Assembly: GCA_002269645.1 (NCBI GenBank) | Contig: NIVC01004591.1 | Span: forward strand, 1 to 41,096 | Length of the DNA stretch: 41,096 nucleotides | From: Macrostomum lignano | Taxonomy: Eukaryota | Direction of reading: 5' to 3' | Shown here: positions 2,892 through 41,096 of the stretch, piece after piece | Position numbering within the stretch: position 1 is the first letter of the stretch | Layout: each line of letters begins with the position of its first letter | Translations under genes and position numbers: made by a program | The notes under the pieces: model-generated | The model's database searches: none | Told to the model about the DNA's origin: nothing | The model's input: the letters and a program-made list of their open reading frames with translations, nothing else

Positions 2892-3551
2892 GGGATAGCG
2901 ACGTTTGCCTGCGGGACGCTTGCCAGCCGACGTTTGCCTGCGGGACGTTTGCCAGCCGACGTTTGCCTGCGGGACGTTTGCCAGCCGACGTTTGCCTGCG
3001 GGACGTTTGCCAGCCGACGTTTGCCTGCGGACGTTTGCCAGCCGACGTTTGCCTGCCGGAAGTTTGCCAGCCAAAATTTGCTAGCCAATATAAAGCCAGT
3101 CAGTGAAAAATTTGATACTGAAATATTCGCAGTTTAGCGGTTTGACAAAAACCGTTTTTACTCCAACTTTTTGACGGTTATTCGCATATATACAAGTTTG
3201 AAAGCAAAATATATAAATTATGCAGTTCATCAGTCTAACGTCTAATATCTAGTTTACCAACGATTTTGGCTCAACATATCAAAAGATGAACATTGGGTTT
3301 ATATATTTTGCTTTCAAACTTGTATATATGCGAATAACTGTCAAAAAGTTGGAGTAAAAATGGTTTTTGTCAAACCGCTAAACTGCGAATATTTCAGTAT
3401 CAAATTTTTCACTGACTGGCTTTATATTGGCTAGCAAATTTTGGCTGGCAAACTTCCGGCAGGCAAATGTCGGCTGGCAAACGTCGGCTGGCAAATGTCG
3501 GCTGGCAAACGTCCCGCAGGCAAACGTCCCGCAGGCAAACGTCGTAGACCC
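2892..3551. mobile_element. Non-autonomous foldback / MULE-like DNA element, copy 1 (660 bp, near-palindromic)
   Basis: Termini GGGATAGCGACGTTTGCC...GGCAAACGTCGTAGACCC. Arms of ~300 bp are inverted and built of 14/15-bp ACGTTTGCC repeats plus a ~130-bp unique inverted segment. Flanked by direct AAATTTTC (2884-2891, 3552-3559). Confidence 0.85.
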
Positions 3552-9376: not shown

Positions 9377-9651
<275 letters not shown>

Positions 9652-10144
9652 AGAAACTTGAGTCTATGTATACTTGTTCAATATTATCGTCTAGCAAGTA
9701 TGATTTGTTTCGTATAGAAGCGTGGTTTATCGCAACAGATCCGTTAATCATTAAACCTGTCATCATGCATTACTGACTAATGCAACGCAATTAAGTGGCA
9801 ATCCTTTCGTAGCACCTGGGACCTTTCTGGCTTCATTTCGCCATTCGGTTTTTTGCTAACAGAACTAGAATATACTCTCGACCCGTGTCTAAAAAGTCAA
9901 TAAAATAAAAAAATCTATTAAGCGAGCAATCCTATTAAAAATCAGAACCGTGTGCTAGAAATCCTGTTCTGCAATCACAATAGTTGCTTTGAACTTCTCT
10001 AATAAATTGTCTTTTAAGCTGAGATTTTTACTTAAGATAGCCTTACTTAAATTACTGGCTTGGCTTGCAGTCTGTGGGAAAGTGCAGTGGCTTAACCATT
10101 AGACATAATTGTCTGTCTATCAGTCTGTCTGTCAGTCTGTCGGT

Positions 10145-25132: not shown

Positions 25133-26893
25133 GGGTCTACGACGTTTGCCTGCCGACATTTGCCTGCGGGACGTTTGCCAGCCGACGTTTGCCTGCGGGA
25201 CGTTGTTGGCCAGCCGAACTTTGCAGGCGGCAATTGGTTAAAGAAGTACGCCCTCTCTAGGCTTACATGTACTTGCATTTGAAAACTGTGGACACAGCAC
25301 TAATCTAATTCCAGCTCGCTCCCTACTACTGCTATTAAATATACAGGTTACTAACAAACTACTGTTCAGGCTTATTGAAGTTATTGCTCTTGTCTGCCTA
25401 AATAGGAAGGTAAAAATACAAAATAGGAGTTTCCATTGTCACAGTTGATGTCTATGTATGCCATGGAATGGCCCTTTTCATCTCAGTGGCCAAATAAGCT
25501 AAGTGTTTACAAGCTAAATGGGAAAAGGCTGAGACATCCATAGTGGTATTGGCCTAGTCTCGCCTATATATACTTAACTCAAAAGCCAAACTCTGCTTAA
25601 CGGAGTTTGGCCATGACAGCGTGCACTTGACAAGCTGGATTGGAATTAATTCGCTTACTTTTGGATCTCCCAATGAACTGGGAAATATACAAGCCAGAAT
25701 TATCGTTCAGCATGTCATTTATTTGCTCAAAACTTGGCTCGCAGGAGATTCCCGTTTAAACTTGCGTGTCTTCATTCGCAAATCAAGAATCAAACATCTA
25801 CAAGCGATACAAAATTGTCGGAAGTAAACTTTATAATATTTTCACATTCAAAGAAATTATTGTTAAACTAGATGCTAGATTGATGAACTGCATAATTTGT
25901 ATAGATTTTGTTTTCGAACTTTTATACATGCGAATAACCGTCAAAAAGCTGGACTAAAAAACTGCTTTTTAAAACCGCTAAACTGCGAATATTTCAGTAT
26001 CAAATTTTTCACTCACTGACTTAATGTCGGCTGGCAAATGTCGGCTGGCAAACGTCGGCTGGCAAACGTCGGCAGGCAAACGTCCCGCAGGCAAACGTCC
26101 CGCAGACAAACGTCCCGCAGGCAAATGTCGGCAGGCAAACGTCGGCTGGCAAACGTCCACTGGCAAACGTCCGCTGGCAAACATCGGCTGGCAAACGTCC
26201 CGCAGGCAAATGTCGGCAGGCAAACGTCGGGTGGCAAACGTCGCCTGGCAAACGTCGGCTGGCAAACGTCGGCTGGCAAACGTCGGCTGGCAAACGTCGG
26301 CTGGCAAACGTCGGCTGGCAAACGTCGGCTGGCAAACGTCGGCTGGCAAACATCGGCTGGCAAACGTCGGCTGGCAAACGTCGGCTGGCAAACGTCGGCT
26401 GGCAAACGTCGGCTGGCAAACGTCGGCTGGCAAACATCCCGCAGGCAAATGTCGGCTGGCAAACGTTTCGCAAGCAAACGTTGGCTGCCAAACGTCCCAC
26501 AGGCAAACGTCCCGCAGGCAAACGTCCCACAGGCAAACGTCCCGCAGGCAAACGTCCCGCAGGCAAACGTCCTGCAGGTAAACGTCCTGCAGGCAAACGT
26601 CCCACAGGCAAACGTCCCACAGGCAAACGTCCCACAGGCAAACGTCCCGCAGGCAAACGTCCCACAGGCAAACGTCCCGCAGGCAAACGTCCCGCAGGCA
26701 AACGTCCTGCAGGTAAACGTCCTGCAGGCAAACGTCCCACAGGCAAACGTCCCACAGGCAAACGTCCCGCAAGCAAACGTCCCGCAGGCAAACGTCCCGC
26801 AGGCAAACGTCCTGCAGGCAAACGTCCCGCAGGCAAACGTCCCGCAGGCAAACGTCCTGCAGACAAACGTCGGCTGGCAAACGTCGCTATCCC
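25133..26893. mobile_element. Non-autonomous foldback / MULE-like DNA element, copy 2 (1761 bp, opposite orientation to copy 1)
   Basis: GGGTCTACGACGTTTGCC...GGCAAACGTCGCTATCCC with a perfect 9-bp TSD ATTTTACCT (25124-25132, 26894-26902). The right arm has ~60 GGCAAACGTC-core 14/15-bp repeats. Confidence 0.9.
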
Positions 26894-27408: not shown

Positions 27409-29270
27409 ACCGTAGATTAAGACAGACCTATCTTCTTCTACCGTAGATTAAGACAGACCTATCTTCTTCTACCGTAGATTAAGACAGACCCATCTTCTTC
27501 TACCGTAGATTAAGACAGACCTATCTTCTTCTACCATAGATTAAGACAGACCTATCTTCTTCTACCATAGATTAAGACAGACCTATCTTCTTCTACCGTA
27601 GATTAAGACAGACCCATCTTCTTCTACCGTAGATTAAGACAGACCCATCTTCTTCTACCGTAGATTAAGACAGACCTATCTTCTCCTACCGTAGATTAAG
27701 ACAGACCCATCTTCTACCGTAGATTAAAACAGACCCATCTTCTTCTACCGTAGATTAAGACAGACCCATCTTCTACCGTAGATTAAAACAGACCCATCTT
27801 CTTCTAACGTAGATTAAGACAGACCCATCTTCTTCTACCGTAGATTAAGACAGACCCATCTTCTACCGTAGATTAAAACAGACCCATCTTCTTCTAACGT
27901 AGATTAAGACAGACCCATCTTCTTCTACCGTAGATTAAGACAGACCCATCTTCTACCGTAGATTAAGACAGACCCATCTTCTAACGTAGATTAAGACAGA
28001 CCCATCTTCTTCTAACGTAGATTAAGACAGACCCATCTTCTTCTATCGTAGATTAAGACAGACCCATCTTCTACCGTAGATTAAAACAGAACCATCTTCT
28101 TCTAACGTAGATTAAGACAGACCCATCTTCTACCGTAGATTAAGACAGACCCATCTTCTACCGTAGATTAAGACAGACCCATTTTTTTCTACCGTAGATT
28201 AAGACAGACCCATCTTCTTCTACCGTAGATTAAGACAGACCCATCTTCTTCTACCATAGATTAAGACAGACCCATCTTCTTCTACCGTAGATTAAGACAG
28301 ACCCATCTTTTTCTACCGTAGATTAAGACAGACCCATCTTCTATCGTAGATTAAGGCAGACCCATCTTCTTCTATCGTAGATTAAGACAGACCCATCTTC
28401 TTCTACCGTAGATTAAGACAGACCCATCTTCTATCGTAGGTTAAGACAGACCCATCTTCTATCGTAGATTAAGACAGACCCATCTTCTTCTACCGTAGAT
28501 TAAGACAGACCCATCTTCTTCTACCATAGATTAAGACAGACCCATCTTCTTCTACCGTAGATTAAGACAGACCCATCTTCTTCTACCATAGATTAAGACA
28601 GACCCATCTTCTTCTACCGTAGATTAAGACAGACCCATCTTCTATCGTAGGTTAAGACAGACCCATCTTCTATGGTAGATTAAGACATACCCATCTTCTA
28701 TCGTAGGTTAAGACAGACCCATCTTCTATCGTAGAATAAGACAGACCCATCTTTTTCTACCGTAGATTAAGACAGACCCATCTTCTTCTACCGTAGATTA
28801 AGACAGACCCATCTTCTTCTACCATTGATTAAGACAGACCCATCTTCTTCTACCGTAGATTAAGACAGACCCATCTTTTTCTACCGTAGATTAAGACAGA
28901 CCCATCTTCTTCTACCATAGATTAAGACAGACCCATCTTCTTCTACCGTAGATTAAGACAGACCCATCTTCTATCGTAGATTAAAACAGACCCATCTTCT
29001 TCTACCGTAGATTAAGACAGACCCATCTTCTACCGTAGATTAAGACAGACCCATCTTCTATCGTAGATTAAGGCAGACCCATCTTCTTCTACCGTAGATT
29101 AAGACAGACCCATCTTCTTCTACCATAGATTAAGACAGACCCATCTTCTTCTACCGTAGATTAAGACAGACCCATCTTTTTCTACCGTAGATTAAGACAG
29201 ACCCATCTTCTATCGTAGATTAAGACATACCCATCTTCTTCTATCGTAGGTTAAGACAGACCCATCTTCT
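27409..29270. repeat. 28/31-bp satellite (ACCGTAGATTAAGACAGACCCATCTTCT[TCT]), ~60 units
   Basis: Uninterrupted array ending mid-unit at the LTR boundary. Confidence 0.97.
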
Positions 29271-29271
29271 C

Positions 29272-31486
29272 TGATGTAACCGCCCTTGTCGCCTGTCCGC
29301 TCCGTAGAGAGACGAACGCATGACTAGAGGGGGCAATGACCGTAGGCTGCCTATGACCGGGCAATGACCTGACGGACCTCCAGCACCAGACTGTCCCGCC
29401 CACATGATTAGTAGCTTTGGTAGCGCTTCGTGACCAGAGGGCCAAGGACCCACATGGACCCCACCTGTAGCCAAGGTGCAATAGTTGGTCACTCGGTCAT
29501 GGTATGACCGAGTGGCTGCCACCACTCTATGTGACCTGGCGCACCTGGATCTTTCTACCAGACCTCTCGAGGCTAGAGCCCCGCCTGGATTGGTTACCAG
29601 GGGATTTAGGCTAACAGGGGAGACGCATGCAGCCGAGTACAGGGACTCTGCTTGGGGCATGATCGGGAACTCTGGGCTCAATCCTGGAGGATTTCTCAGC
29701 AGGGGATCCTTTGTGGCTGTGAGCGAGGCTGACTTGCGACTTTGATTACTAAGAGTAGTATGAGGCGAACATGTACTGTCTACAGTTTAGATTGCTCAGG
29801 GCGAAGGGACGCGTCAGCATGGGGTTGCAACCTTCCTACTGCCATTCTGTGCCAAGACTCGCTAATCCCTCTACTGCACGCACACGCGGCCCCGCAGCAC
29901 GCACTCACAGGCGGGCTTTGCACGGGGAGAGGCCATTAGCTTACCCAAACTTCCTTATGCTTTGCCACCCCGGGAGAAAGGCTTAGCAAGCCATGAGTGA
30001 AAGGATGGTGAAAGATTGAATAATGATGAAGTTAGTTAATAGTTAATAATTAGGCCCTTAGGCAAATAAGCAGGCAATTAGGCGGCTTCACTATTGAGTA
30101 AAATACAGCAAAAGATACGGTATCACAATTGGCTCAGCTCTCTAATCAGACAATGGAAAATAGGCAAACCCCGGATAAGCAAAGGCAATTAGAGCACAAA
30201 TTAGTAACAGGAACTTACCGGCAGCTGCACAGAGAGAGAGAGAGGCGGAGTGACCGGGGCGGCTGTAGGCTGCAGTCAGGCAGACGGTGAAGCGGCGATG
30301 CGCTGGAGCGACGAGGCGCTGATGTAGATCAGGCGATGCTGATGATGCTGGGCGGTGTCAGACCGCTGGCCGATAGGCGAGCTCACTTGGGGAGCTAAGG
30401 ATAACTTGGCGGTAACAGACCGCGGACCGGCAGGGATTCGTCTTATAGACGAATGGGTCAGAACTCAATCTGACAGCAAGTCCAAAGAAGGACGAGGAGA
30501 GGAAAGAGATAAACTCAGTTGAGTATTCTCATGCCGAAATCGCTTCCTTTTATAGACCTCACAGCCGCCTCCTCAAGGTCGTTACCATGGCTCCCTCTCT
30601 CTGATTGGCTGCCGGCAGAATGACGTCAGAATGAGTCATGATGAGAAGCATGAGACCGGCATAGCAACATGAGAAATCGGGAAATTGCGCAATCCGGAGG
30701 TGGGGTGGGGGGATAATTGGCGCAGCGGGTGGTCGCGAAAGTGTTGCGCAAGCAAACATTGAGAACAATAGGGCTGGGGTCGAGAACAAAGGAATTGGAA
30801 ATCGGGGATAATTGGGGAAAACTGAGAACAATGGAAAAGTAAACATTGGAGAAAAGGTGATAATTAGGTGCGAAAACGAGAACAAAAGAAAGAGAAAATC
30901 GGAGAAAATGTGATAATTGGTGGGGGTCGAGAGAACAAAAGAAGCAAAAACGAGAACAATAGAAGCGGAGGTGGGGTGGGTGTCACATGAGAAATTTGGG
31001 AAGGAGAACAATAGCGTGAGAAAAGGTTGCGCAAGAGAGGGGGATGAGTCATCGATGAGTCACCGAGGGGGAGAAGGGGTCACACGACTTGCGTCACCGT
31101 TTGGGAGTTTGAGAGGGGATGGGGAGACGGTGAGCACACAAAGTACTGTAAGTAGACACAGGGAAAGAGGGGACAGCGCAGGAAAAGAGTGCAGAGGGAG
31201 ACAAAAAAAGGAGGAGGTAGAGAAAGTACAGGAAGAATAGGGCGGGAACAGAAGAGATAGGGTAGAGGGGGAGGTACAGAAAGGGGTAGGGGCTCCGGAA
31301 AGGCAGGTGTGGCGGCAGGAGAGACGGGACCAAGGCAGCAGGAGGGGTGCAGCAGAGCGGGAGTCTCCAGGCCCGGTCGGAGACCTGGCCGAGTCTCGAC
31401 AGCTCTGTGCAGAGGGTGCACGGGATAGGAGGCACTTTCGAAAAAGTTCCCATGCCCTATCCCGCGACCAGAGCGTGGTTACATCA
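29272..31486 (-). repeat. 3' LTR, 2215 bp
   Basis: 10-bp terminal inverted repeat TGATGTAACC...GGTTACATCA. The first ~890 bp are repeated at 40210-41096. Confidence 0.9.
30548..30640 (-). promoter_or_regulatory. LTR core promoter: TATAAAA (30554-30548), CCAAT (~30604-30608), CRE TGACGTCA (30621-30628), AP-1 TGAGTCA (30632-30638)
   Basis: Motifs seen in the order expected for a - strand U3 promoter. Function is inferred. Confidence 0.6.
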
Positions 31487-31505
31487 CACCCCCACTGCCT
31501 TTTGT
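31487..31505 (-). other. Polypurine tract
   Basis: - strand ACAAAAGGCAGTGGGGGTG directly precedes TGATGTAACC of the 3' LTR. Confidence 0.7.
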
Positions 31506-32540
31506 GACGGAACTGGTTCCGTCATCATCACTGCCCAACATGGAACCACACAGACGGGAGCGGGACCTCAACCGAACGTGAAATCACAGAATTAACAAAC
31601 CGCGAGCGGGAATGGAAAAAGGCGATAAAATAGAGGGGATAGCAATAAATTCACAAACGAGATACATAGGTTGGAGTGCAATACAGAATTTCAAAAATTT
31701 CAACTGTTGCTGTGGCTAAAGTGGGAGGGGGGAAACACAGACAGCGCAATAGTAGGGAGAAAAATAGCGAATTGTCAACAATAAATTATCATAATTGGAT
31801 AGAAGCGCAGCTGGGAAAGAGAGGAAACGGGGAAGGGTGAGGGAAGTGGGGAAAAAGAAGGGGGAAGGGTTGCTAGCACACAGCCAAGGGCAGAGCCTCG
31901 GGGAGAATGACGATTACACAGGGGAAAAATACTAATGCAGCGCAGTAAATTAATAAGCTAATTTCGCCGGGAGTTCAACCGCACGGAGGCCTAGCGTCCT
32001 TGAAGGCTCGGACCCCGCTTCAGCCAGTCAGAGGGCTTCGGGGCGATCGGTTGTAGGCTGGGAGGCGCCGCGCCGTGCGCTGGCCACTGTATAAAAGGCG
32101 CCACTGATAACGGGAGCCGGCTGCCTGCAACCTACACGGAGTCGCAGTTTCCAACCAAGGCACTCAGCGCGATTTTCCAAACTATACAACTACTCGGTAA
32201 GTCCCATCACCAACCTGATTTCCTTTCGCCTATACGTTAAACGAAATCTACCCACTCGCCATGCCTTTCGTTTTAAACTGAGCCAATTGCAGTAATAATA
32301 TATGGCCTTTCTTACGGTAAAAGTAGTGAGCAGCCAACACAGAGCCATTTTTAGGAATTTTTAGAATAATGACACAACAATGACTCGTATATTGGTTATT
32401 AAAGTTTAAAAATGAATATTATGGAAGAACCGAATATTAATAGGATAATTTCACACACACACAACAAACACACAACGCAAGGGGGCGGAAAGGCGGGTCG
32501 GACCGGCCGGCGGACGTCGCTCAGCAGGCAGTCAGCATCC

Positions 32541-33890
32541 TTACTCGAAATGGGCCTCTTGATTTAGCTGGTACGGGCCATATGCCGCCACCTGAGCCAT
32601 GGCACTTGCCCATGCTTCCACATAACGTTGGGCTGCCGCGGCCGTGAGCACCACTCGGTGCCATCGGCTAGGCAAGATGTCGTTGCGCAGCACGCCCCTC
32701 AACTGCGGCAGAGTCGGGATGCCCAGGGCTTGGCATTGGACGACGAAGGCCGCATTCCGTACTTGTTGCAGCCGTGTCAGAGTTGGTGCAGACAGGGGCG
32801 GCTGCGCGATTGCAAAATGCTGCAAAGTGCCACGGGGCACCTCGGCCAGGCCCGCGTAGCCGGGCTCAACGTCGCCCAGGGCCGCCAACACCCACCCACA
32901 GCGGCGATTGAACCGTTGCGAGAGAGTGGCGGCCCAGGCCACTGTGGCAAACGGCGCATAGAGGAGGGGCGCAGAGGCCGGCGCGGAGGCCGCAAGAATG
33001 CCGTCGTGGATGACGAGAGCCTCTTCCCATTCGGCGCCCTCGCTCAGGAAGCCCCAGAGCAGCCCTGGCAGGTCCGCAGGAAGCATGCCCCAGCGGCTGG
33101 CCAAGCTGGCCAGGCCAATCAATAGCCGGGCTCTCTGGGTTGGTGTCAGTTGTCTAGTCATCTGAGAGGAGGCTGCGCAGCTGATGATCACCTTCTTGTA
33201 GACCGGCCGATCGCAGGTGCTGAAGATTGCTGTGATGGGGGCACAGGACGGCGGCCGGGCTGTCAGGTGTGATGGTTCCTCATCCACAACCTTGCGGAGG
33301 AACTTGGCGGCCTGCCGGACTAGGTCGCCGAGGGCGTATTTGTAGGCGCTCTGGGCCGCTGCCTCGATGTACATTAACAGCGTATTGTCAACCAATCCCA
33401 GCAGGGCCGCTTTTGACAGGATGAGCAGACAGGGCCGGTCCAGGTTGTCGCGAAGTTGGCGCTCTAGAGTCGCATGCCTGTCCTCGGCCTGGAGTGGGCC
33501 ATGATAGGACTCAGGCCCGACCCAGTGCACCAGATCCATAGCTGTCGCCGAAGGTTCGCCAGCCACCTGACCCCAATCGACTTCTTCTCTTTGCAGGGCG
33601 ATGTCCACACTTCGGCGGCTGTTGGGCAGAACATCACGCAGGCGGCGGGCCGCCTCGCCGAATTCGGCCGCCAGGTCCGAAATGTCTGCGGTGTCGCCCC
33701 CAGCATTGGCCGGGTCGATTGTCTCGTCACCTTCTTCGACCCTGGCGGAGGCCGCCGCTGGCGGCTCGGGGCCGTCCTCCGCCTCTTGGATGGCGTCACG
33801 GGGCCGCTTTCGGCTAACTGGGCTGGCAGGACGCTCAGACGGTAAGCTGGAGCATAGCTGAATTCGATTGATGGTAGGCTTCGTGTCCAT
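32541..33890 (-). CDS. Element ORF3, 449 aa hypothetical protein (possibly ~562 aa from 34228 if one base is missing near 33891)
   Basis: Long uninterrupted non-repetitive ORF. Acidic/Pro-rich N-terminus with RKRPR, then a helical-looking body. No family recognised. Confidence 0.75.
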   Translation of the reverse strand: MDTKPTINRIQLCSSLPSERPASPVSRKRPRDAIQEAEDGPEPPAAASARVEEGDETIDPANAGGDTADISDLAAEFGEAARRLRDVLPNSRRSVDIALQREEVDWGQVAGEPSATAMDLVHWVGPESYHGPLQAEDRHATLERQLRDNLDRPCLLILSKAALLGLVDNTLLMYIEAAAQSAYKYALGDLVRQAAKFLRKVVDEEPSHLTARPPSCAPITAIFSTCDRPVYKKVIISCAASSQMTRQLTPTQRARLLIGLASLASRWGMLPADLPGLLWGFLSEGAEWEEALVIHDGILAASAPASAPLLYAPFATVAWAATLSQRFNRRCGWVLAALGDVEPGYAGLAEVPRGTLQHFAIAQPPLSAPTLTRLQQVRNAAFVVQCQALGIPTLPQLRGVLRNDILPSRWHRVVLTAAAAQRYVEAWASAMAQVAAYGPYQLNQEAHFE

Positions 33891-35889
33891 GTCAAGCTGG
33901 ATAGTTCATAGAATGCTTCAGCGATTGAAGGACAGAATGATTTCTCTGATTGATGATTTCCAGCTCTGGCAGGCGTGGGTCTTCTTATAGTGCCGGGGCT
34001 GGCTTCCCATTGGTTGAGCACATTGGGAGGCACACCTGCTGCGGCCGGGGTCGCCGTTGGCTTGGGACCGCTCGCTCTAGTCTCCGTGCGCTCTGATTGG
34101 CTGGTTCCGCCGCTTCCTGTTTCCTCACCTGTGAGCAGGGGGCAGACCCGAGACCACCTCCGGTCGCGCCCGCGGCAGATCCGTACTCCAGCCGACAGAG
34201 ATCGCACTCCCACCTCACATGCACACATTCAGATCAGGCACACAAATTAATTTGGTTAATATGAATAGAAGAGGGATTTGGGAGATTAGACTCCGGAGGA
34301 TAAATGATGATGCGGCCCAACTCCCTTCGATTTCTTCCTTCAACGCCACGCGCACGCAGTTCTCATCCATGCCTCCGAGACCCTCATAAACTTAACAGCC
34401 GAAAGAATTCGAAAGAGGAATTAATCATTAATTTGACTGCCACCAGTTTGATGTACTATTATAAAAGAGAAAGGGGAACCTACCACCATCTTGGCGCATT
34501 ACAAAGAAAAGAAAAGGAGGATCAGCCACCATTTTGAGAGAGGTTGCTAGGGAAAACTGCCACCAATTGTACATTAACAGGGAAGAGAAAGAGGGAACCC
34601 GTCACCAATTAGAGTGGATTGCCCGGGGAAACTGCCACCATTTGCCCTTCTACCAGAGGAGAGGAAGACGAAAAACTGCCATCACTTAGAGGTGTATCAT
34701 TAAAAGAAGGCGGGGAAGAAGGCTACCACTACTTGATCACCTAGAGCTCAAGGGAAGGAGAGGGAATGAAGAAAGGAAGAAACCCCCAGGAAGGCCACTA
34801 CCACACGCCATAAAGTTAAAATCCCCATCTATCTACATCCTAATACCCGGCTAGTTCCCTACTTCTATTTCATCCCTTAAATTCTCATTTTCAGGATTCC
34901 GGCCGCTAGTAGCCGAGCCCATCCTTGAAGAGGAGTCCGACTACGAAGCGCCCGAAGACAGCCATTCAGAGCCGGACGCCCCCTCTGATTCTGGGCCGGC
35001 TGCGCCATCTGGTGACATAGGCGCCGCGGCTCCCGGGCCATGCGACCGCCGGCCGCCAGCGAACCAGCGTCCGGGGCCGGTTGGCATCCGGTACCACCGC
35101 CGTTGTCAGCCCGAGCGCACGCTCCGCCGCCGGTCGCCGCGGTGACGCCCGTGGCTGCCGCTCCACAGCCCTTGCCAACCCCTGTGGTGGAGACCGACGG
35201 CTCCTGGCATTTGGTCGTGCTGTCGACGGCCCTAATAGCCGGTCTCACAATGCACTGGCTACTGCTCTTGGAGCTATTTCTGCGGCTTCCCAACTGCTGA
35301 TGCTGGTGGTTCTTAATGCTTACTTACTAATTCTGAACTATCTGTCCCCATAACTTGACTTTAATTACTTACCTGACTTTACATTGACTAAACCACTGGC
35401 CTACTCTAAACTAATTGCTGCCCCATTTGCCTGATAAACTTAATTACATTGAATGCCCCCCCCCTATTGCCTCATCGAAACCAATTAAAAGTTTCCCAAA
35501 ATCGGACTTTCACAAAGTGTGAACAAACACACGAAATCAGACCTAAAGGTGCTAATTTCCTACGGTCCCAGACTTCCATTGTTCCCAGAAAATCTTAAAC
35601 AGCGGGGCAGGACCTCCTGTGGAGCAGACCCATAGAAATTTTACTAGTTTCCAAGTTAATATTTACTGATAGGGAATTAACGCATACTGTACGGGCCTAA
35701 TTTTCGAGCTAAAATCTTAGATATTTAAACAACACCAACGAGCACGAGGTCACAACATAAATTCGAGTAATAGAGGGCATACGTAAATACGCGAAAAGCG
35801 GTCTCCAACGGGGCAACACGAGCAAAATTTCGACACGCGAATCGGGGGGGGGGAATTAAGCAATCACTGGCTAGCTACCGATCTGTTAC

Positions 35890-36414
35890 TCAGCGGGGGT
35901 CGAATGGGAGACTCACACCTAGCAAGTAAACCTTTTCTGTTCGATAGTCTATGATAGCATGCGTACTGGCTAGAAAAGCACTACCCAGGAGGGAAACTGC
36001 TGCTGAATTGCCAACGACCAGAAAGAGGATTCTCACCTCTTCTAGCCCAATAACTGCTGTGAGGGTGGCCTGGCCTAGCATCTCTAATTCATTGCCCGTG
36101 TAGGACACGGCCTTCACACATGGGGGCTCCAGGGCCTCCACACTCTGTCCGGTAATTTTAGTAAAGTCTTTGACTGTTAGCAAAGACAGCGCACTGCCCC
36201 CATCTACCAGGAGGCGGGTGGGAACATTCTCAATTGGCAACTCTACAACAATATCTCTCCCGCGTTGTCCTCCAGCTGGTCTTGGCTGATAGAAATCGGG
36301 TACCTTCTCAAATCTAAACTTCTTGCTGGGCGGACGTGGCAGGTTAAGCTGGGCCCTAGAGAGGGAACGGGGCTGAGTTCGGGCCGGGCCATTCAGCCCT
36401 CCCACGGGTTTCCC
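35890..36414 (-). CDS. pro: Retropepsin-like aspartic protease, -1 frame relative to gag
   Basis: PIENVPTRLLVDGGSALSLL (D-x-G-S active-site motif), ...GNELEMLG..., SLLGSAFL...IIDY (ILGxDFL-like motif). Stops at TGA 35892-35890. Confidence 0.85.
   Translation of the reverse strand, partial: GKPVGGLNGPARTQPRSLSRAQLNLPRPPSKKFRFEKVPDFYQPRPAGGQRGRDIVVELPIENVPTRLLVDGGSALSLLTVKDFTKITGQSVEALEPPCVKAVSYTGNELEMLGQATLTAVIGLEEVRILFLVVGNSAAVSLLGSAFLASTHAIIDYRTEKVYLLGVSLPFDPR
36370..36414 (-). other. -1 programmed ribosomal frameshift signal
   Basis: In-frame G GGA AAC heptamer (36414-36408), then a GGGCTGA/TCAGCCC hairpin (36399-36370). A -1 shift enters the protease frame (PVGGLNGPAR...). Confidence 0.8.
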
Positions 36415-37838
36415 GAACCCGGGGGCTCTTCAGGCGTGGAAGGAGGAGGCATCAGAGCTTGCGCGCGCAGCTGGGCGAGCCTCTCCTGCCTCTCCCTGGT
36501 AGCCTCGTCTAACATATCTCTGCCCCACTCCTCTAAATCTTGCCTATGGCGATCAGGTGGCGCACGAAGCTGCAATTGCTGCTGCTGCACACCCGGCGCC
36601 GGCGGCGTGGGCGCCTCCTGAATTGCAAGCGGCGGGGGCTGGGGTTGGCGCCAGTTCCTACTGCTATTAGAGCCGCCCTGCCCCTGCCTCCAGTTCCTGT
36701 TGGGAGTGGCGGGGCGAGGGGGCCTCATCTGCTGGGGCAGCTGGGCAACAGACTCTGCTGTCGCCTTCATAGTTTCATTGAGCTGCACCAGCTGGTTGCG
36801 CAGATCCTTTTGCGTTTGCTCTAGCGCGCCCAACCTCTCTTGCATCTCTGATAGGCCGTCACCGTCCTCCTCCGTCTCGTCAGCTTCCTGGTTCACCATC
36901 CTGACCCACTTGCGAGGGGGCCTGGGTGGCTGCTGAGGTTGCAGACGGACTTCGGTGCGGGACTCAGACCTGGGCGGGCCACTACTGTCCCATTTCCCGG
37001 CTAAGTCTGCGGCTTCTAACAGGGCTTGCTGCTGTTCTAACACCTGCTCAATTGTCTGCCAGCGACGGCTCAACAGATCTTGTCTGACCTGGCGGGGGAG
37101 CTTAGCGTGTTCCAAGTAGGTGTACACGATTTCTTGTTCTCTCTGCTCACCCTGAATCTGAGGAAACATGGCCGTTATCTGAGATCTTATCATAGCAGCA
37201 AAAGCACTATGTGATTGGCCGGGTTTCTGGCTCAGATTCTTCAGCTTATTTCTCTTAGCCAGATCAGTGTTGGCCTCGCCCAACTGCTCTCCTAATCTAG
37301 ATACGAACTGCTCAAAGGGCAATTGCCCGTCCAATCCTAAGGCTAAGTTCTGAAATTCACCTGGGAGGTGCGAGATGAGCACCTGCTTCCTAGCCTGATC
37401 TCCTACAGTTCTCTCCGCGTCCAGCTTGTAGATCATTCTCTCTACCCATTGCACAAAACAGTGTTCGCCGGGAGAGAACTTTTCTACGTAGATTTTCGGC
37501 CTCTGGGCGTCTTGGCCCATGTTTAGCTGGTTAAACGCATTGGCTATAGCGGCAACTAAGTCTCCTAGCTGCGGGACTGCCTGAGGAGGATTCTGGGCTG
37601 CGTCCGGGGGAGCAGCGGCGGCTGCTGCGCCACCCTGATTGGGAGCGGGAGCTGCTACTCCTTCATCTGGTTCCTCAACTACTACTGCTTCTGGAGGCTG
37701 AGGGACCTGGTTACCAGCGGCTGCGGCCATTGCGGCTGCGGGGGCGGCAACTGCTGGGGTGTCAGCGGCCGAGGGTGGTTGACCAGGGGCGTCTGCGCAC
37801 ACAGCTTCTACGACCCTATCTCCACGCGCCCGTGACAT
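36393..37838 (-). CDS. gag: Ty3/gypsy Gag (capsid), 481 aa, no CCHC zinc knuckle
   Basis: EKFSPGEHCFVQWVERM and KLKNLSQKPGQSHSAFAAMIR resemble retrotransposon capsid motifs. Position is downstream of the PBS and upstream of the protease. Confidence 0.85.
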   Translation of the reverse strand: MSRARGDRVVEAVCADAPGQPPSAADTPAVAAPAAAMAAAAGNQVPQPPEAVVVEEPDEGVAAPAPNQGGAAAAAAPPDAAQNPPQAVPQLGDLVAAIANAFNQLNMGQDAQRPKIYVEKFSPGEHCFVQWVERMIYKLDAERTVGDQARKQVLISHLPGEFQNLALGLDGQLPFEQFVSRLGEQLGEANTDLAKRNKLKNLSQKPGQSHSAFAAMIRSQITAMFPQIQGEQREQEIVYTYLEHAKLPRQVRQDLLSRRWQTIEQVLEQQQALLEAADLAGKWDSSGPPRSESRTEVRLQPQQPPRPPRKWVRMVNQEADETEEDGDGLSEMQERLGALEQTQKDLRNQLVQLNETMKATAESVAQLPQQMRPPRPATPNRNWRQGQGGSNSSRNWRQPQPPPLAIQEAPTPPAPGVQQQQLQLRAPPDRHRQDLEEWGRDMLDEATRERQERLAQLRAQALMPPPSTPEEPPGSGNPWEG

Positions 37839-40188
37839 GTGAATGCCGGATAGCTGGGGGAGTACCCACTACCGGGAAGGAAAAGAAAAGAAAACCGGGG
37901 CAACTACAGGTAAAGACCGAAAAGTTGATCCGAAACACACAAACACACTCACACACACACAAACACAGACAAAACCACACACTTGCGGCGTCGAAGAAAA
38001 CAAATTGAAAAACGGGTGGCTCCACATAATTCCATTTAGGCAGTCCTAACGGCTTCACTCGGCAAAGCACACTGACTCAAACTGCGGCTACCACTACCAG
38101 TTGTCTATGGCACATCCTGACAGGGAAAAATTGGCTATTCAGAGAGACTTGACCTTCATTTTGCGGCCATGCTAGGGAACCCAAATGCCGACCGTAAACG
38201 GACTTACGGCACCTGTACAAATTCTCCCCTAGGGTTGCGCGCCGGACCCCATTTCCTTAAGAAAGCTACTACGAAGAAGCGTTGGCGCCTGGACCCAAAA
38301 ACCCAAGTGGCGGGAGCAATCCCCATGGAGGTCCTCCCACTTTACTGCCCTTGCACAGCCGGAAAACCGTCGGAGTCCAGTGGGGCTTCCACCTCAGGAC
38401 TACCAATCTTGTACACGCAGCTTCACAAAAGGCGGGAATCCAGCTCCCCTACGTCTAGCAGAATCCACAAAAACCAAGACCTCCCCCTTCTGTTCAGAGC
38501 GAAGGCGCGCAGCGGGAGTCCAGACTAAACTGTCCCCGAAGTTTTCAGGTTAGGCGGATTACAAGCCTGAAACTCTCGCCCGCTTTCCTAGGATAAACAG
38601 ACCTAAGTGAGTATCTTCCTGAAATGCTTGCCCCTCCGATACTCCACCTTTGCTGCAGCTCGAAATAGCATACTTGGGACCTTTATCTGATGGCGGAGAA
38701 AGTCCTACAGTTGTCAGCCTCTCCACTTTACTGTACTTGAACGCCCGGTTCTACCAGGAGACAGCGGTACCTCCATCTAGGTTATTCCAAGTTGCCAGAG
38801 ACGTCAACCCGTCTTATTGACCTTGCGGGGCACTGGGGTGGCACTCTATGTACCGGGGCTTTACATTAGGGGACTGCATGCAACCCTGCGTCTAAGCGCT
38901 TAGTGGGCTGCAGTGGCCAGAGGGGAAAAGAGTTGCGCAATAGCGCCTTCCTGGGCCAGGCTGACAAGTCGGGCAGGAGCGCCGTTCTACCGGGTCGGGC
39001 TGATTGGCACACCCACCTCCCCTATCAGACTGACAGCAGGGGGGAGGAATTACTAAAGGAGGAGAATGCAGCAGGAAACATTACGAGATCACTGGGGGCC
39101 ACCAGACTTCCAGTACACCATTCCAATACTCACTGAACTCCACTATCAATAGGATACTATGGGATCTACTATTTCCAGCCACTGCACCAGCCCAAATGCA
39201 ACCAAAGCAGTTACTACCGGGTCTGCAATACAGTGGGGAGAGTCAGCAGACACGTTGGGATCGAATCCCAGCCATGAAGGCACCAGGGGTTACCGCAGAA
39301 TTCAGGTCCGGGCTGATCGCAGGTATTCCATAGGAGGTGACACTTTTTTTAGCCCGAGATTTTTGAGTCACACTGATACCCTACAGAGATACAATCACAC
39401 CGCTATTCCCATTCCTGCGAGACTTTGGTATCCCCCAATGTTTCCAAGGCCATGACTACTGCTTCCCTTACTATGCATATATAGCGAGTTCCCCATAGCC
39501 CTTGATAGCTGTTCATTCTAATGGACAAACAAAACACGCTCCGGTCTCTACGCATTTCTAGGATTAACTGAGCGATCAGGGAGAGCGACTGTTACACTCC
39601 CCGAGTAAAAGAAAGAGGTAGGACAAAGGAAAGAAATGCTTCGCTTCCAGCTTCCCTGTGCTTGCGTGATGAGGCTTCCGTACCTGGCTGGCTGTCCACC
39701 TCAACACTCACACAGTTCTGCTGTAGGCTAGGCGAGAGAAAGAAAGGGAGGGGAAATAAAGCATATTACCATGAAATAGAAAGTGAGTCCGGAAAATTCA
39801 CTTTCGCAGTTCTTCACACACTCCGTTACCAGGTAGCTATTCTGATTGTAATCAAATCCGCTCGTCTACCACTTCACACTTTCTAGCGCTGAAACTGATC
39901 GGCTAAATTAATTTTAAATTGAATCAGGGGCTTTTGGCGAATGAATGAATTTGGAAATTTCGAATGAATTGAACGAATTCGCAGCCCGAAAAATTTGAAA
40001 AGTTACATTAATATTTTTGGATTTTGTTGCCTCACGCCATGGGAGAAGAGAATGACGATTGGCGATTTTTACGATTGGTAGATTTAGACATGGCACTCTT
40101 TGCGCTTCGGCCACCATTCTGAGGGATGCCACAGGTGCGCTTGTCACATCTAAACCACCAGTCCGAAACTCAGCGCTGTTTGCACCAG

Positions 40189-40206
40189 ATCCCACCGCTG
40201 CCACCA
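40189..40206 (-). other. Primer binding site complementary to the 3' end of tRNA-Leu
   Basis: - strand TGGTGGCAGCGGTGGGAT, 3 nt after the LTR end. The + strand ATCCCACCGCTGCCACCA equals the conserved eukaryotic tRNA-Leu(AAG-type) 3' end including CCA. Confidence 0.9.
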
Positions 40207-40209
40207 TTT

Positions 40210-41096
40210 TGATGTAACCGCCCTTGTCGCCTGTCCGCTCCGTAGAGAGACGAACGCATGACTAGAGGGGGCAATGACCGTAGGCTGCCTATGACCGGGC
40301 AATGACCTGACGGACCTCCAGCACCAGACTGTCCCGCCCACATGATTAGTAGCTTTGGTAGCGCTTCGTGACCAGAGGGCCAAGGACCCACATGGACCCC
40401 ACCTGTAGCCAAGGTGCAATAGTTGGTCACTCGGTCATGGTATGACCGAGTGGCTGCCACCACTCTATGTGACCTGGCGCACCTGGATCTTTCTACCAGA
40501 CCTCTCGAGGCTAGAGCCCCGCCTGGATTGGTTACCAGGGGATTTAGGCTAACAGGGGAGACGCATGCAGCCGAGTACAGGGACTCTGCTTGGGCATGAT
40601 CGGGAACTCTGGGCTCAATCCTGGAGGATTTCTCAGCAGGGGATCCTTTGTGGCTGTGAGCGAGGCTGACTTGCGACTTTGATTACTAAGAGTAGTATGA
40701 GCGAACATGTACTGTCTACAGTTTAGATTGCTCAGGGCGAAGGGACGCGTTAGCATGGGGTTGCAACCTTCCTACTGCCATTCTGTGCCAAGACTCGCTA
40801 ATCCTCTACTGCACGCACACGCGGCCCGCAGCACGCACTCACAGGCGGGCTTTGCACGGGGAGAGGCCATTAGCTTACCCAAACTTCCTTATGCTTTGCC
40901 ACCCCGGGAGAAAGGCTTAGCAAGCCATGAGTGAAATGATGGTGAAAGATTGAATAATGATGAAGTTAGTTAATAGTTAATAATTAGGCCCTTAGGCAAA
41001 TAAGCAGGCAATTAGGCGGCTTCACTATTGAGTAAAATACAGCAAAAGATACGGTATCACAATTGGCTCAGCTCTCTAATCAGACAATGGAAAATA
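40210..41096 (-). repeat. 5' LTR (partial, U5 end)
   Basis: Matches 29272-~30162 except for 2 substitutions and 4 single-base homopolymer indels, counted by eye. Confidence 0.95.

Follow-up and report, generated by a model that had tools for sequence, protein, structure and literature searches.

Primer-binding-site copies arrayed inside a Gag-protease LTR retrotransposon of Macrostomum lignano: candidate docking sites for tRNA-Leu

The window analysed here is the whole stretch of 41,096 nucleotides formed by positions 1-41,096 (forward strand) of Macrostomum lignano contig NIVC01004591.1, assembly GCA_002269645.1. Its sequence identifies the element that carries the array as a young LTR retrotransposon of the Ty3/gypsy type encoding Gag and a protease. 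On the minus strand, the order of its parts is 5′ LTR, primer-binding site (PBS), long 5′ UTR, Gag-like ORF, protease ORF, array, ORF3, polypurine tract (PPT) and 3′ LTR (Table 1). LTRs with TG...CA ends, a tRNA PBS and a PPT were all present, and neither reverse transcriptase (RT) nor integrase was found in the element. Over the 891 nt compared, the two LTRs share 99.3% identity. In both of them a perfect 25-nt palindrome adjoins the secondary site (29489-29524 and 40427-40462), and the sense (minus) strand of the LTR at 29272-31487 contains neither AATAAA nor ATTAAA. The 3′ LTR is inserted in a 31-bp satellite (27409-29270), at the end of which the element lies. Positions 1-29271 are dense in micro- and minisatellites, and repeats of a 14/15-bp family, arranged as inverted arms at 2899-3544, occur once more at 25140-26885. 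Compared with lineage C100, the 3′ part of the Gag-like ORF gave a dN/dS of 0.1, and the ORF contains no CCHC knuckle. The protease ORF and the DSG protease of sister family B share 40% identity.

Table 1. Features of the array-bearing element and their positions in the window.
Feature	Position	Strand	Remarks
5′ LTR, cut by contig end	40210..41096	−	exact 10-nt secondary site at 40453-40462
True 18-nt PBS for tRNA-Leu	40189..40206	−	3 nt from 5′ LTR end
13-nt box complementary to the anticodon-stem/variable-arm region of tRNA-Leu(AAG)	40156..40168	−	sequence match
Single PBS/LTR-end mimic in 5′ UTR	40108..40116	−	common to RT partner
Module in place of the partner's gag-pol	32320..37628	−	junctions 32319/20 and 37628/9
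Gag-like ORF, 491 codons stop to stop	36393..37868	−	core 28% identical to partner's Gag
Aspartic protease ORF	35890..36429	−	weak Pfam gag-asp_proteas match; DGG motif
Antisense coding exon, 134 codons	34895..35300	+	acidic, Pro/Ala-rich, hydrophobic C-terminus
Predicted branch point, pyrimidine tract and AG acceptor of antisense exon	34818..34894	+	beside array
Array of 9 degenerate units	34437..34810	−	sequence, shuffles, unit alignments
Predicted ORF3 internal promoter	33983..34110	−	TATA 33989; CCAAT 34013, 34026, 34100
ORF3, 449 aa from Met	32541..33890	−	dN/dS 0.10 vs C100
Predicted antisense TATA (32090), first exon and GTAAGT donor (32197)	32090..32202	+	
Polypurine tract	31488..31501	−	read from sequence
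3′ LTR, 2216 nt	29272..31487	−	secondary site at 29515-29524

ORF3 belongs to no Pfam family, and neither a homolog by word search, an Atlas match nor a metagenome locus was found for it. The 50% library gave three hits, one of them (P0002) apparently spurious, and remote homologs only; the homologs are the unnamed proteins P0001, P0003 and P0004. A structure model of ORF3 had a pLDDT of 45 and no fold match. Against C100, dS was 1.44 for ORF3 and only 0.19 for gag and 0.02 for protease, which indicates that the ORF3 cassette has been exchanged between lineages. Its predicted promoter region is conserved in C100 and in a 72%-identical ORF3 fragment (L064:2093-3685, G000:C201) that retains the promoter outside any recognisable element. 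This fragment stops before the array, and its 3′ flank resembles the 3′ UTR of family B. ORF3 is deleted in many copies of the element. In two copies (L139, L140) insertions of about 2.1 kb interrupt its promoter at the equivalent of 33996, and one copy (L141) carries an insertion of about 6.2 kb past the antisense exon, at the equivalent of 35657.

The antisense exon showed a dN/dS of 0.20 against C100 (p=3e-6) and of 0.56 and 0.41 in other lineage pairs; by these ratios its plus-strand frame is under purifying selection. The copy in the window is broken by a frameshift near 35050. The branch point and acceptor that precede the exon are conserved, and the predicted donor region lies within the 3′ UTR common to the RT partner. 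The array and ORF3 are predicted to be nested in the intron of this spliced antisense gene. No ATG was found in the joining frame, and no splice joint in the four contig sets aligned to 31400-40300; contig X10 breaks off at 34923, a point at which splicing into the antisense acceptor would interrupt it, but as the exon past that point has no coverage there, this speaks neither for nor against splicing. The stretch is contained in 20 sequencing runs, none of them recorded as RNA. The exon has no Atlas match. Its diverged matches on C2635 and C2918 are fragments lacking the array, and C195 and C2500 show no link. The arrangement recurs in family B (L068:7196 and 9378-9986, G000:C151): an antisense donor lies in the 3′ UTR, a small sense ORF has a promoter of its own, and there is an antisense ORF of about 200 codons that is unrelated.

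Comparison with other copies revealed an RT-bearing partner. The elements C936 and C2803 match the element of the window at 98-99% identity in the LTR, the 5′ UTR and the 3′ UTR (window positions from 37629 upward and from 32319 downward), and LTR, PBS and PPT are common to both kinds of element. The partners carry the Pfam domains RVT_1, RT_RNaseH, Integrase_H2C2 and rve, in the order RT-RNaseH-integrase. A protease profile search found no protease in the three RT-bearing copies examined (C936, C2803 and C3095, the last being the RT partner of sister family B), although the same profile found one in the other gag-pol elements fetched, even distant ones. The Gag-only elements of families A and B both encode a protease. 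Gag-protease and RT-RNaseH-integrase are therefore found on separate elements with shared ends in both families, which probably represent bipartite pairs. The partner loci are G000:C936 33872-38530 (L072, L073), C2803 (L074, L075) and C3095 (L096, L097). Since the RT partner has no detectable protease and the Gag element supplies one, the two halves may be mutually dependent, and the comparison suggests a mutually dependent pair of LTR elements in an animal. The array is absent from C936 and C2803, and the RT partner replicates without it. In sister family B a single internal mimic is present in both halves, although not in every copy.

On the element RNA, each array unit consists of an LTR-end-like CA followed by 2-3 nt, a 9-mer complementary to the 3′ end of tRNA-Leu and a pyrimidine tract. 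The 9-mers start (plus strand) at 34437, 34480, 34523, 34557, 34599, 34632, 34676, 34723 and 34795. Those at 34437, 34557 and 34632 are exact, the ninth has three mismatches and the remaining five have one or two. The original prediction had described this region as a set of PBS and LTR-end mimics, and most of what it described was borne out. The segment 34437-34455 is identical to the true junction at 40198-40216 in 18 of 19 nt, a 13-nt exact match lies at 34525, and the motif recurs exactly at 34557 and 34632. Two of the four degenerate versions that it listed are where it placed them (34599 and 34676), and the other two, given as 34479 and 34722, are off by one nucleotide. The range of about 33-46 bp proposed for the spacing is slightly too narrow, the actual distances being 43, 43, 34, 42, 33, 44, 47 and 72 nt. 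Purine tracts do stand beside the motifs on the plus strand, except that the left flank of unit 1 is AT-rich. These tracts correspond to pyrimidine tracts on the element RNA and cannot serve as PPTs, a role discarded because of the wrong strand.

The array is far above chance expectation. When the array region was compared with the first nine bases of the PBS, 3, 6 and 9 sites were found at up to 0, 1 and 2 mismatches, respectively (the nine include a site at 34647 that is not an array unit and exclude unit 9). The corresponding means in 1000 dinucleotide shuffles were 0.003, 0.053 and 0.57, with maxima of 1, 2 and 4. Some other roles were considered and dropped: coding, as the reading frames differ among lineages; an array of sense-strand acceptors, as several units have no AG; and CTCF or TCF sites, as key bases of these motifs are missing. 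Pattern searches for further arrays returned satellites, PBS copies nested in LTRs, and this family only.

The PBS corresponds to the 3′ terminus of host tRNA-Leu genes with CCA added, in agreement with the complementarity to tRNA-Leu that had been proposed for the motif. Twelve host tRNA genes fit the PBS pattern, and the six that were scanned are Leu(AAG) or Leu(TAG). At 20 nt from the PBS, the 13-nt box matches Leu(AAG) best, the match for Leu(TAG) being 11 nt; we infer that this box is an extended PBS contact. Among 30 loci, the box was seen in this family only. In computed duplexes, units 1, 4 and 6 form 10 contiguous pairs with tRNA-Leu, one of them G-U, at about −19 to −21 kcal/mol. A tRNA-Leu fragment gave −39 kcal/mol at the true PBS versus −10 to −23 kcal/mol at array units. 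With other regions of tRNA-Leu the array has matches of at most 9 nt including G-U pairs, and its best matches are to the 3′ end. The motifs are predicted to be unpaired with values of 0.13-0.53, the array mean being 0.45. A test based on G-U pairs could not distinguish pairing with the tRNA from antisense pairing, as transitions make up most of the changes.

The distribution of the array was studied at 57 places selected for a match to the Gag protein of roughly 90% identity or higher, split hits being merged by hand. The array was present in 52 of them; three were cut by contig ends and two were near-identical copies breaking off inside gag. One further arrangement, at G000:C4958 6639-18858, comprises two copies about 9.05 kb apart that are probably tandem and share an LTR. 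Three lineages, about 0.1-0.3 dS apart, carry the array with 6-9 units: nine (about 381 nt), seven after loss, seven in lineage C100 and six in C513. The loss is a recurrent, exact one of 75 nt that removes two units between identical motifs. Unit 1 of the window and its counterpart in C513 both agree with the junction in 18 of 19 nt, the mismatches being different. Junctions that remove ORF3 wholly or partly were found in 17 of 51 aligned array loci (four loci were unaligned), and four further cases lie beyond this alignment. These junctions are of six types, five of which end at 34246-34525, and all keep at least seven array units. As this set was chosen mostly by the array and the deletions spare the antisense exon too, the retention lends little weight to the idea that the array is needed.

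The original prediction would have the 9-mers conserved over the spacers, and this holds for diverged units and not for recent copies. In an alignment of 16 regular units from the three lineages, from which the last two irregular units of each were omitted, or in an alternative one of 19 units that includes the penultimate unit, the mean pairwise difference was 0.13-0.17 in the 9-mer versus 0.42-0.49 in the other columns. The CACCA core, made up of the five bases closest to the tRNA 3′ end, is invariant or nearly so, and variation rises outward. With four unit sets, none of 500 equal-rate simulations reached the observed contrast even at the best 9-column window, a significance that is inflated because the units were found by the motif, irregular units were mostly omitted and the simulation had no indels. 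Orthologous divergence between lineages was 16/161 in motifs, compared with 58/297 for spacers (among which a missed unit of the A copy was included) and 44/241 for tracts, and no lineage pair was significant (p 0.09-0.23). In 47 young copies (3 of 50 were skipped) motif variants were not depleted, at 14/81 against 32/300 in spacers and tracts (p=0.12, in the wrong direction), and 14 young copies carry an allele of unit 6 that breaks CCA. These results on young copies and lineages suggest that single units are dispensable or that constraint on the array has since been relaxed. In each of the three lineages CCA is mismatched in the penultimate unit, and two columns of the LTR-end part, TTG, are also invariant in a unit alignment. 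Nearly all motif changes between units are transitions, and conservation in the array (0.69-0.87) is below that of its flanks (0.85-0.91).

Short extra sites also occur in other Leu-primed LTRs. Of 893 matches to the core of the Leu PBS, the first 30 were examined; 24 of these were PBS-like and fell into eight groups. Among these first matches, six of the eight groups have an exact extra 9-mer within 300 nt of the LTR end, while reversed and complemented control motifs gave none in the eight. In five groups all 16 extra sites match the tRNA over 10-11 nt, in flanks that are unlike one another, a length close to that of the acceptor-stem strand plus NCCA; in the sixth, the extra site is a whole duplicated PBS. 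On the internal side only two of the eight groups have an extra site, both tandem PBS duplicates. None was found in three LTRs with another, presumably His-like, primer, two of which are close relatives, and the Leu-primed groups may themselves be related to each other. Nested U5/PBS copies were seen in C16, C652 and C3173, and the U5 end with the PBS is copied in tandem or nested inside Leu-primed LTRs, 50-90 nt apart, at L148, L154, L156, L167, L083, L095 and L104. Such duplications in several families indicate that copying of the junction is recurrent and that the part matching the tRNA survives. Some true PBSs of sister families match over only about 11 nt.

Tentatively, and with less than even confidence, we favour the reading that the array consists of auxiliary, non-priming docking sites for tRNA-Leu copied from the element's own U5/PBS junction. 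Among the functions that the original prediction had offered, loading or docking of tRNA is the best supported, whereas an alternative priming site and a scar left by the acquisition of ORF3 were not supported. The units would have arisen by copying of the junction during reverse transcription, and their gain and loss may be due to template switching between motifs. Annealing would nucleate on the single-stranded ACCA tail of the tRNA and extend through the acceptor stem for at most 10 pairs, a mechanism that fits the gradient of conservation toward the tRNA 3′ end; this length comes close to the 11 nt of the gypsy PBS (PMC1635307). In this way the RNA of the Gag-protease half would be loaded with tRNA-Leu, and the extra primer could favour that RNA or stock a particle shared with the partner. 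The 18-nt PBS with its 13-nt box would be the only productive start. The conserved TTG, the fixed mismatch of the penultimate unit and the modest accessibility are left unexplained by docking. The undepleted motif variants of young copies, the non-significant divergence between lineages, the replication of the RT partner without an array and the one mimic or none of family B also speak against it.

The units could instead be binding sites for a protein, either a DNA enhancer or insulator array or a splicing element of the antisense intron, which we find rather doubtful. The conservation does reach TTG, past the match to the tRNA. The array also lies 330-700 nt upstream of the CCAAT/TATA promoter region and directly before the conserved branch point and acceptor, its purine tracts are on the strand of the antisense transcript, and its retention in copies without ORF3 suits a role in the antisense gene equally. 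The unit resembles a YY1/Pho site. The core of the YY1 motif is an invariant CCAT that includes the base after CCA. In the array, however, the T position differs among units, the base after CCA being among the most variable columns (0.52-0.66). In addition, the secondary LTR sites of other families keep only the 10 nt that match the tRNA, and copies that have lost ORF3 and its promoter still carry the array. A neutral, decaying minisatellite that began as an accidental duplicate of the U5/PBS junction, with template switching driving its turnover, is unlikely in our view. Junction duplications are common in the clade, the predominance of transitions, the undepleted variants of young copies and the lower conservation relative to the flanks all agree with it, and family-specific tandem arrays are common between pol and the 3′ LTR, as far as the available sections of that study go (PMC11963269). 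It does not account for the contrast between core and spacers, the retention of at least six units in three lineages about 0.1-0.3 dS apart, or the exact 10-11-nt sites in otherwise unlike LTRs.

A competitive decoy for host 3′ tRNA-Leu fragments that would block the PBS is possible and of low probability. According to the accessible part of one report, 18-nt 3′-tRFs compete for the PBS and thereby block reverse transcription of LTR elements (PMC7515703), and an unfolded fragment, having no acceptor stem to melt, could be favoured by short sites. Such a fragment is nevertheless bound far more strongly at the real PBS than at any unit by the duplex energies given above, and the array sites do not match a seed; a target of miRNA type would not fit, as the sites correspond to the 3′ end of the 3′-tRF. 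That the array is the scar of a template switch that brought in ORF3 seems highly improbable. Five of the six types of ORF3-removing junctions do end at the edge of the array, and the C201 fragment of ORF3 ends at 34346, but the module junctions lie 2-3 kb from the array, copies without ORF3 keep it, multi-unit arrays with turnover occur with and without ORF3, and one switch does not yield 6-9 diverged units. Least credible of all, to the point of being scarcely tenable, are productive sites for alternative priming or plus-strand transfer. Unit 1 copies the start of the PBS and the LTR-terminal CA with the correct spacing; yet all 51 exact copies of its LTR-end mimic keep the motif in front (unit 1 being the one examined), so that none is the end of an element, and no fusion between an array motif and an LTR was found. 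Priming at the array would let RNase H destroy the template, in agreement with the missing ends at array units.

Docking sites of this kind can be set against several known systems. In bipartite plant elements of the Ogre type, Gag-protease and RT-RNaseH-integrase are on separate elements with shared ends; in the present pair, a Gag-like N-terminus persists in the RT half, and the host is an animal. In wheat, following the available text, Quinta is a Gag-encoding non-autonomous partner of the fully autonomous Cereba, which encodes a protease (PMC11302176). Like Quinta as described there, the array element has its partner's LTR, PBS and PPT, a divergent Gag of its own and an extra ORF. It has neither RT nor integrase, shares its ends with the partner and has recent copies, as a Gag-encoding non-autonomous element does, but its RT partner has no detectable protease and is not fully autonomous in that sense, the Gag element being the one that supplies the protease. 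In plant Retand elements, the region from pol to the 3′ LTR contains tandem arrays as well as antisense ORFs, of origin and function given as unknown in the sections available (PMC11963269). To that extent the two are alike: each has a long internal region in which an antisense ORF adjoins an array that is specific to the family and varies in copy number; here the host is an animal, the units are PBS/LTR-end copies, there is no RT, and the antisense gene is predicted to be spliced, with no match to TRP28 reported.

With regard to primer binding, Ty3 has a bipartite PBS, the second site of which pairs with a different region of its tRNA (PMC5371799), and Drosophila gypsy has a 5′ and a 3′ PBS, with a PBS of 11 nt and a second site unneeded for cDNA synthesis (PMC1635307), both as given in partial texts. 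As far as those texts go, these elements and the array share complementarity to the primer tRNA at a distant site of the genomic RNA, and the sites are short. The second site of Ty3 and gypsy is single, lies near the 3′ end and pairs with the T-psi-C or anticodon arms, whereas the array, known here from its sequence, offers 6-9 internal sites for the same tRNA 3′ end as the PBS, with the LTR-terminal CA included. By analogy the array may work like a bipartite PBS; its best matches being to the tRNA 3′ end, not to another region, argues that it is not one in itself. The inhibition of LTR elements by 3′-tRFs at the PBS (PMC7515703) involves the same interface of tRNA 3′ end and PBS, and an element-encoded decoy array is not described in the portion available. 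A literature search of partial coverage, supplements aside, found no array of PBS copies. The main text of PMC12801592 mentions neither PBS, tRNA, antisense nor non-autonomous elements, and its supplementary family tables could list such elements.

The probable bipartite organisation and the clade-wide extra sites go beyond the original prediction. A more comprehensive proposal, which we hold to be rather doubtful as a whole, joins them in a two-part animal element: an RT/integrase half without protease, and a Gag-protease half whose multimerised tRNA-Leu array would supply the shared particle with primer or protect it against tRNA fragments, with short extra sites across the clade of Leu-primed elements. 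The ways in which LTR elements concentrate and position the tRNA that primes them, and whether they counteract host tRNA fragments, are known from few models. A variable array of 6-9 units with a partner that has none, together with the 10-11-nt extra sites of the clade, offers a direct handle on primer supply. Finally, the array units would give a traceable origin to one type of internal tandem array, a kind of structure left unexplained in the available sections of the work on Retand.
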